A stretch of DNA of 64,000 nucleotides. Source: Octopus vulgaris (Eukaryota). This document shows, in pieces, positions 35,062 to 35,522 of the stretch (within the stretch, counting starts at the first letter, position 1; the number at the start of each line of letters is the position of its first letter). The notes beneath the pieces were generated by a model, which saw only the letters and a program-made list of their open reading frames with translations, made no database searches and had not been told where the DNA came from. The translations under genes were made by a program, and so were the position numbers. The stretch spans positions 22,320,001-22,384,000 of the forward strand of contig OX597831.1 of the NCBI GenBank assembly GCA_951406725.2, in the 5' to 3' direction.

Positions 35062-35522
35062 TGTGCTAGAAACACCAGCGATAATAATTAATTTTATTTT
35101 ATCGCATTCTGACTTTGTTTACATATTTCTCGATAAATTTTGAGCGTTAGACTATATACCAGAAATCCCTAGTTTGTCGGGTACGTTCTGCGTCTGCGCA
35201 GTGATCTGATTAGTTAGAAAGAGCAAATTATTAGACGCACATGTGTCTATAGAGTTGCGATTTAAGAATAACAGGAATCTTACTGAAGAGCCTACCTGAG
35301 TAAATAAATATTATTTTTATTGCTGAAATAGGCGAAACTGCAGTCTAAGAAGAACCGAGTTAGTAAAAGTTTTTATTTTCATTTCACTAAATTTATCAAG
35401 CTTCTGTGTTTCTAGTACATACTTCGCCGGTTAGTGTACTTATATATGAATAATATATGGCCTGTGCTAGAAACACCAGCGATAATAATTAATTTTATTT
35501 TATCGCATTCTGACTTTGTTTA
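35062..35522 (+). mobile_element. Second retrozyme family: 401-nt unit plus 60-bp terminal redundancy, inserted in (TA)n
   Basis: 35062-35121 is identical to 35463-35522; both flanks are (TA)n; central hammerhead. Confidence 0.88.
35278..35350 (+). ncRNA. Canonical type I hammerhead ribozyme, predicted cleavage after GUC (35345)
   Basis: UCUUA-CUGAAGA-GCCUA...UAGGC-GAAA-CUGCAG-UC-UAAGA; palindromic stem III ACUGCAGU. Confidence 0.93.

Follow-up and report, generated by a model that had tools for sequence, protein, structure and literature searches.

Animal retrozymes and Penelope-like elements

For retrozymes, a cycle has been proposed in which the RNA is cleaved, circularised, reverse-transcribed and inserted, and in the main text of PMC7229834 the priming step and the enzyme are left open. 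A 2026 preprint leans, in its accessible part, on local amplification of DNA, and also reports that only one of nine Xenopus retrozyme dimers was cleaved in vitro (bioRxiv 10.64898/2026.07.22.740005). For animal hammerheads that work as dimers, a weak, palindromic stem III has been described (PMC4209133, accessible text). Among the published properties of Penelope-like elements (PLEs) are internal initiation, nicking of AT-rich targets and the addition of tails (PMC11167929), and 5' truncation together with partial tandems is their footprint (PMC11167929; PMC8557442; available text of both). In vitro, an uncleaved linear RNA was the dominant substrate of the Anolis PLE, and ribozyme mutants were without effect on insertion (PMC11167929, same text).

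The window considered here is a stretch of 64,000 nt from Octopus vulgaris (contig OX597831.1, positions 22,320,001 to 22,384,000 of the forward strand), in which an island at 35062-35522 carries a hammerhead motif. This island is a 5'-truncated copy of a dispersed, non-coding retrozyme family, for which the reverse transcriptase (RT) and endonuclease of a PLE would probably be borrowed and would copy a probable 401-nt circle from a fixed internal start. The reading builds on the structure of the copies, their fixed 3' and variable 5' ends, the TA target, read-through of the cut site and the homogeneity of laps.

The insertion in the window

The initial annotation had described a 401-nt unit with identical 60-bp ends in an island within (TA)n, and this description was confirmed: the island has a period of 401 nt, 35062-35121 and 35463-35522 agree at 60 of 60 positions, (TA)n tracts lie on both sides, and no other period between 380 and 419 gave a run longer than 20. 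The unit has a GC content of 33%, its longest ATG frame is 32 aa even when the circle is read round, and an ORF check found no RT and GIY-YIG reading frame in it. The features, in window coordinates, are the following.

34922..35061, no strand: left (TA)n tract, the target site (tract end also given as 35062)
35062..35522, plus strand: whole insertion, 461 nt or 1.15 laps of the 401-nt unit, with one hammerhead and one cut site only
35062..35121, plus strand: 5'-truncated second lap, which makes up the 60-nt redundancy; its left end is the variable truncation point
35122..35522, plus strand: complete lap counted from the fixed 3' end
35078..35105, plus strand: predicted hairpin directly 5' of the fixed end position, found again at 35479-35506; conserved, with no compensatory change seen
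35129..35144, plus strand: small predicted hairpin directly 3' of the start position in the RNA
35233..35248, plus strand: second hairpin named in the initial annotation; predicted, varies between subfamilies
35278..35350, plus strand: type I hammerhead motif, predicted to be cut after 35345 (GUC); the fixed 3' end follows 177 nt downstream of this cut
35406..35419, plus strand: 3' arm of a predicted 14-bp stem whose partner is 35062-35075
35515..35527, plus strand: fixed 3' junction with (TA)n and putative priming site, where the unit goes on into an AU patch that could pair with a nicked TA tract
35523..35629, no strand: right (TA)n tract (tract start also given as 35521)

The window copy is likely a dead end, because a single cut site does not permit release of a monomer by two cuts.

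Hammerhead and fold of the unit

All parts of the type I hammerhead with GUC that had been proposed at 35278-35350 could be placed, namely a stem I of 5 bp, a CUGAAGA core, a stem II of 5 bp with a long AU-rich extension, GAAA, GUC and a stem III that has 2-3 bp and is capped by a palindromic loop. The Rfam model RF00163 aligned to it over its full length with 30.6 bits (E 1.3e-5), which does not reach the gathering score of 34. Calling the motif textbook was slightly strong, as stem III is of the weak dimer type usual in animals, and a self-duplex of its palindrome is predicted at -11.7 kcal/mol. Both further hairpins described along with it (GCGAUAA...UUAUCGC and AGACGC-ACAU-GUGUCU) are present in the MFE fold. 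In this fold of the whole unit, hammerhead stems I and III are unformed, and the z values are only modest (-1.8 as a circle, -2.3 as a linear strand).

Across the family, 83 of 90 laps retain an intact hammerhead core. A single clade, comprising 6-8 insertions, has a changed position 7, GUA for GUC and one stem II pair altered from C-G to U-A; this compensatory change is a single event, and in 6 of these insertions the remaining core positions are intact. Hammerheads tolerate a change at position 7 as well as GUA. Core and stem I were borderline less variable than the rest of the unit (Fisher p 0.12 for shared sites and 0.043 for private changes). In a subfamily with an overall identity of about 89%, the 75 nt of the hammerhead are identical, but this subfamily was retrieved with the hammerhead as query. 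At one locus (L007:1326-1500), the upstream lap lacks about 46 nt from the stem II extension onward and otherwise matches the downstream lap, possibly reflecting a skipped hairpin.

Fixed 3' ends and variable 5' ends in the family

Four DNA queries against a 2.8-Gb genome (G000) gave 378-674 candidates each, with 40 scored, and 81 insertions were mapped from the matches and from fetched stretches; two of the queries favour the fixed 3' end and two do not. One insertion is a segmental duplicate (L080, of L079) and was left out of the lap, tree, hammerhead and length-unbiased analyses, and two with other 3' ends (L054 and L074) were excluded from the lap analyses. The copies are dispersed, head-to-tail and without LTR, and extend up to about 5.8 laps (L048).

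Of the 81 insertions, 79 share their 3' end with the window copy and pass into (TA)n there, 177 nt beyond the predicted cut (77 of them end at unit positions 59-67, and 2 have an alignment running on into the TA flank), and both exceptions came from an internal query. The 5' ends, on the other hand, occupy 19 of 20 phase bins. The idea that copies start at different phases of the unit is thus upheld for their 5' ends, but the start of reverse transcription is not random in phase, and such a random start was rejected given the 3' end fixed in 79 of 81. Fixed 60-bp ends common to all copies, which the initial annotation had named as a finding that would speak against its proposal, were not observed, and a structural terminal repeat of 60 bp was likewise rejected, as the 5' ends vary among insertions.

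The exact 3'-junction pattern occurs 172 times genome-wide, against 0 for a reversed-pattern control, and the first 100 matches listed served as a length-unbiased sample. These insertions measure 22-1130 nt with a median of 233 (for the most diverged subfamily, values around 657 are slightly too low); 3 exceed 700 nt, and 33 are longer than one lap of 401 nt, in support of the proposed retrozyme family with multi-lap copies. Two cut sites are held by 14 and two whole hammerheads by 9, while 14 of 78 insertions of the first set hold at least two complete hammerheads and the window copy holds one. For each 60 nt copied, the probability of a stop is 0.11-0.28 up to a length of 620 nt. Because lengths decay smoothly from the fixed 3' end, the 60-nt redundancy marks only where the cDNA of the window copy stopped.

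This decay bears on a reading at the DNA level, according to which a SINE-like monomer was inserted and redundancy and tandems arose afterwards by unequal crossover, slippage or gene conversion. Local amplification has been proposed in the accessible part of the preprint (bioRxiv 10.64898/2026.07.22.740005), and one six-lap array, L048 (G000:C19:53546384-53548697), has a period-3 pattern that agrees with it, variants being shared by laps 1 and 4 and by laps 2, 3 and 5. That pattern stems from either local duplication after insertion or a multimeric template, and it suggests that long arrays also grow after insertion. As the general origin of the family's redundancy, however, growth at the DNA level is most improbable, since no whole-lap steps are seen in the lengths and multi-lap copies are mostly partial, with 1.0-1.7 units.

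The flanks point to TA tracts on both sides. A TA-rich 5' flank is present in 76 of the 100 unbiased insertions, and 39 of 67 TA-flanked 5' ends keep the TA register (background 0.11). At the 3' junction, 80 of 100 go straight to TA and 20 of 100 retain unit-type bases just past the junction, as would be expected from priming inside the AU patch. Two candidates for preferred 5' ends were also considered. An excess at the cut site, with 8 of 81 at positions 283-292 in the biased set, was unsupported: genome-wide, 3 ends lie exactly at the cut and two TA sites used as controls have 1 and 0, and in the unbiased set the figure is 1 of 59. A pause after exactly one lap was suggested by 5 of 33 stopping at 396-409 nt, but this site has strong TA microhomology, from which a pause is inseparable.

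Read-through of the cut and homogeneity of laps

Of the 59 insertions in the unbiased sample that extend as far as the cut site, 58 continue past it, and an indel within 5 nt of the cut is absent from 70 of the 71 laps that span it. Since copying of a cleaved linear monomer would end after 177 nt, the template was either closed or uncut. Identical laps could also come from such a monomer if the enzyme, on arriving at the 5' end, jumped to the 3' end of the same molecule, and a few insertions do end exactly at the cut (L120 and L127 in the 81-insertion set; 3 genome-wide). However, a jump would be needed in 58 of 59 cases and would have to leave no scar in 70 of 71 laps, which makes this route very unlikely. 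When retrotransposon RTs jump from end to end, bases are often gained or lost.

At common polymorphic cells, adjacent laps agree in 2627 of 2646 cases and differ in 19, as compared to 914 differences expected for random family members. In 13 of 59 multi-lap insertions, 18 variants were found in all laps of their own insertion and nowhere in the remaining 156 insertions, compared with 64 private variants that are lap-specific; about 0.1 such all-lap variants would recur by chance according to our own arithmetic, and some of them adjoin indels and may be artefacts of alignment or assembly. In a lap tree, 10 of 13 multi-lap insertions each make up one side of a branch, with bootstrap values not fully settled. 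Rare alleles shared by related insertions do not vary from lap to lap (L019 with L062, and L048 with L060), and mixed lap patterns are seen in insertions that are not related, frequently at CpG or junction sites. No convincing case emerged of lap-specific variants being passed on in order, the sole candidate being position 358 in L064 and L066, which lie in different sub-branches.

The homogeneity of laps would require that monomers are repeatedly converted to multimers at insertion, which favours a circle as the simplest explanation. Homogeneous source arrays outside the sample, gene conversion or assembly effects may also cause it. The circular 401-nt template proposed at the outset is accordingly retained as the favoured reading only, on the strength of near-identical adjacent laps and private variants common to all laps.

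A rather unlikely competitor is a linear template, namely an uncleaved transcript reading through a tandem array, as in the pLTR partial-tandem mechanism; insertion by a PLE from the same fixed start would follow, the hammerhead would act slowly or later, and no circle would be needed. Autonomous PLEs of this genome leave the same footprint, with a fixed 3' end and a 5'-truncated upstream copy, the Anolis PLE prefers uncleaved RNA in vitro (PMC11167929, available text), and the lack of a 5'-end peak at the cut (3 versus 1 and 0 at the control sites) fits as well. Against this, only 3 of 100 insertions exceed 700 nt, so that long sources are rare and lengths would shrink with each round. A linear transcript also predicts ordered inheritance lap by lap, whereas the rare alleles of related insertions are uniform over laps, and variants common to both laps of insertions with 1.4 to 1.6 laps cannot stem from local duplication.

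Contigs from sequencing runs

Contigs of eight sequencing runs were compared with 35062-35522 of the window. No run recorded as carrying the sequence is listed as RNA, which speaks neither for nor against transcription. Run X5, possibly of RNA, contains a contig of 426 nt at a depth of 139 (other listed pieces had 8 at most), which covers a lap of 396 nt and 30 nt more and runs across the cut. According to our own arithmetic, 396 + 30 nt is the length that a closed loop would give with 31-letter words. The contig as a closed 396-nt loop is a hint only: an uncleaved multimer would give the same loop, and contigs by themselves are no proof of RNA or of a circle. It represents a diverged variant, whose letters are likewise common in X15 and X17, two runs of unspecified kind. 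A variant subfamily in which the stem II region of the hammerhead is replaced appears in runs X1, X2, X5, X9, X15 and X17 (three organism codes). Two patterns for this variant had zero matches in genome G000, and active subfamilies therefore seem to differ between genomes.

A possible Penelope-like partner

A search for GIY-YIG found matches in 148 of 150 scored candidates, among 6136 candidates. Young PLEs of the Neptune type carry an RT, CxxxxCxxC and, at the C terminus, GIY-YIG. The ends were analysed at 16 loci of 18, and 14 of the 16 belong to the Neptune family of locus L199 or a close relative; in 11 the end lies at a single site on (TA)n, and in 3 it follows a tail of about 43 nt. The local Neptune elements form pLTR partial tandems with a fixed 3' end and a 5'-truncated upstream copy, and, 66 nt upstream of their end, have a minimal hammerhead-like motif of a variant kind. 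The same insertion footprint of fixed internal start, 5' truncation and partial tandem is found in the 401-nt family. By analogy, since target and geometry match, the partner enzyme would be Penelope-like and most likely of the Neptune type.

Direct sequence links are weaker. The unit compared by blastn with 30 GIY-YIG loci (of 6136 candidates) gave a best E of 0.037 and no strong match. A terminal motif common to retrozyme and Neptune looked plausible by eye and was rejected, since the similarity between the retrozyme end and one Neptune end was not significant, shuffles reaching its score in 365-745 of 1000.

Some peculiarities of the PLE loci were noted as well. The hammerhead-like motif in the Neptune pLTRs (L199:690-740 and 5403-5450) has a U3-A8 core variant and a stem I that is weak in this subfamily; such a core variant is described for Schistosoma PLEs (PMC4209133, accessible text). 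In the same element (L199:856-4518; G000:C6, near 112.99 Mb), an upstream ORF of 466 aa overlaps with the RT frame at a T-rich site that may be slippery, and the RT frame has its own ATG as well; frameshifted ORF1s are mentioned for PLEs in the legend of Fig. 1 of PMC8557442. Further unrelated type I hammerhead-like motifs lie beside PLE loci (flanks of L139, L144, L147 and L198), and the genome appears dense in such motifs.

Proposed route of insertion

Copies with two hammerheads would first be transcribed. Their hammerheads would then cut, probably as a dimer by way of the palindromic stem III, and the released monomer would be ligated. A Penelope-like protein, most likely of the Neptune type, would nick a (TA)n tract, and the nicked TA end would pair with the AU patch 177 nt past the cut and prime cDNA synthesis. 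The enzyme would circle the template and drop off at a roughly constant probability, after which the cDNA end would be joined to TA by microhomology; for the window copy, this would mean a stop of the cDNA after 461 nt. Taken as a whole, the family might then be a record of rolling-circle, target-primed reverse transcription, in which a Neptune-type enzyme primes on nicked (TA)n at a fixed site of a ribozyme-made 401-nt RNA circle and each insertion is a new multimer from one molecule. In this complete form, the proposal is tentative and has somewhat less than an even chance of being correct.

The 495-nt hammerhead family of the same window

A second hammerhead family, with a 495-nt unit, lies at 8208-10616 of the window. 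It had been regarded as unrelated to the 401-nt family, and blastn agrees with this, the best match being 14 of 16 nt (E 0.12), with the 5-bp stem I identical in both. Like the 401-nt family, it has a type I hammerhead and an end joined to (TA)n downstream of the cut (at 132 nt). However, it is younger (99% identity between copies) and usually two-armed and inverted. Both strands were found at 21 of 30 loci of the 495-nt family (overlapping loci) versus 0 of 135 loci of the 401-nt family, and inverted cases among the 100 unbiased 401-nt insertions were limited to 2 places; the insertion modes therefore differ. Thus, the independent support that the 401-nt unit was said to give to the mechanism of the 495-nt array extends to a common logic, but not to the mode of insertion.

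Of the 2 inverted places, one (L236:1504-1788) is a copy with an 87-nt inverted 5' piece adjoining the palindromic stem III and resembles fold-back or twin-priming, and the other (L221) is one TA tract with two short ends of the 401-nt family facing each other. The 495-nt array itself, in the region 6700-11996, has a minus arm at 8208-9058 and a plus arm at 9058-10616. It is flanked by a 1.4-kb inverted duplication of an RT-bearing fragment, in which 6816-8208 mirrors 10616-11996 at 99%. At 6700-6816, a 117-nt piece of the 495-nt unit extends past the end of the arm, like a PLE tail.

Comparison with known systems

The kind of element is already known, and the 401-nt family is an additional animal non-LTR retrozyme. 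Judged from its sequence, it falls under the definition given in the available text of PMC7229834 and bioRxiv 10.64898/2026.07.22.740005, with a type I hammerhead in each unit and a short non-coding unit (about 150-450 bp) of less than 50% GC. At least two complete tandem hammerheads, which Li et al. use to call an element active, are present in 9 of 100 unbiased insertions. In the literature searched, including the text of PMC7229834 (supplements, subscription papers and Repbase/Dfam were outside the scope), there was no fixed-start or cephalopod retrozyme. Mostly at the level of abstracts and without supplements, the same literature contained no fixed start, TA target or lap test for retrozymes.

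The family supplies an exact predicted start site, a target and, in the same genome, a candidate intact PLE protein, the 781-aa Neptune-type ORF of the L199 family. The lap-variant test separates circular from linear templates, and the priming question can be addressed with the published PLE assay. If the rolling-circle reading is true, the priming of animal retrozymes would be settled and the enzyme named, and PLE modes would differ, one-armed versus two-armed, between two unrelated circles of the same window.

With the animal non-LTR retrozymes of Cervera and de la Pena 2020 (PMC7229834) and Li, Clavereau and Pollet 2026 (bioRxiv 10.64898/2026.07.22.740005), in the parts of these sources that were accessible, the family shares a non-coding, AT-rich unit of a few hundred nt, a type I hammerhead with weak palindromic stem III, monomer-to-multimer tandems, the lack of an LTR and PLEs in the same genome. 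Their circles measure 170-400 nt, and the 401 nt found here, with a long extension of stem II, are at the top of this range. In these texts priming is left open and reports of a fixed 3' end, a series of 5' truncations or a (TA)n target are absent, whereas cleavage and circles have been demonstrated for elements described there and the 401-nt family is known from sequence alone.

In its mode of insertion, the family would appear to work like a non-autonomous PLE. As far as the accessible text of PMC11167929 and PMC8557442 goes, PLEs such as the local Neptune and Anolis Poseidon have the same fixed internal start downstream of the hammerhead (177 nt here versus 66 nt from a hammerhead-like motif in the local Neptune), 5' truncation, partial tandems and an AT-rich or (TA)n target. 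Unlike PLEs, the 401-nt family has no ORF, no PLE body seen upstream, rarely inverted arms and no second start of the tail form in 81 insertions. Non-autonomous PLEs of Chlamys such as MRC1 (PMC8557442, same text) are also non-coding, head-to-tail multicopy insertions moved by a PLE. However, they resemble their autonomous partner at the 3' end, a link that the 401-nt family did not show with one Neptune end, and the latter has a canonical hammerhead. The plant LTR retrozyme has a type III hammerhead in fixed LTRs, in contrast to the type I hammerhead and a redundancy ranging from none to several laps in the family described here.
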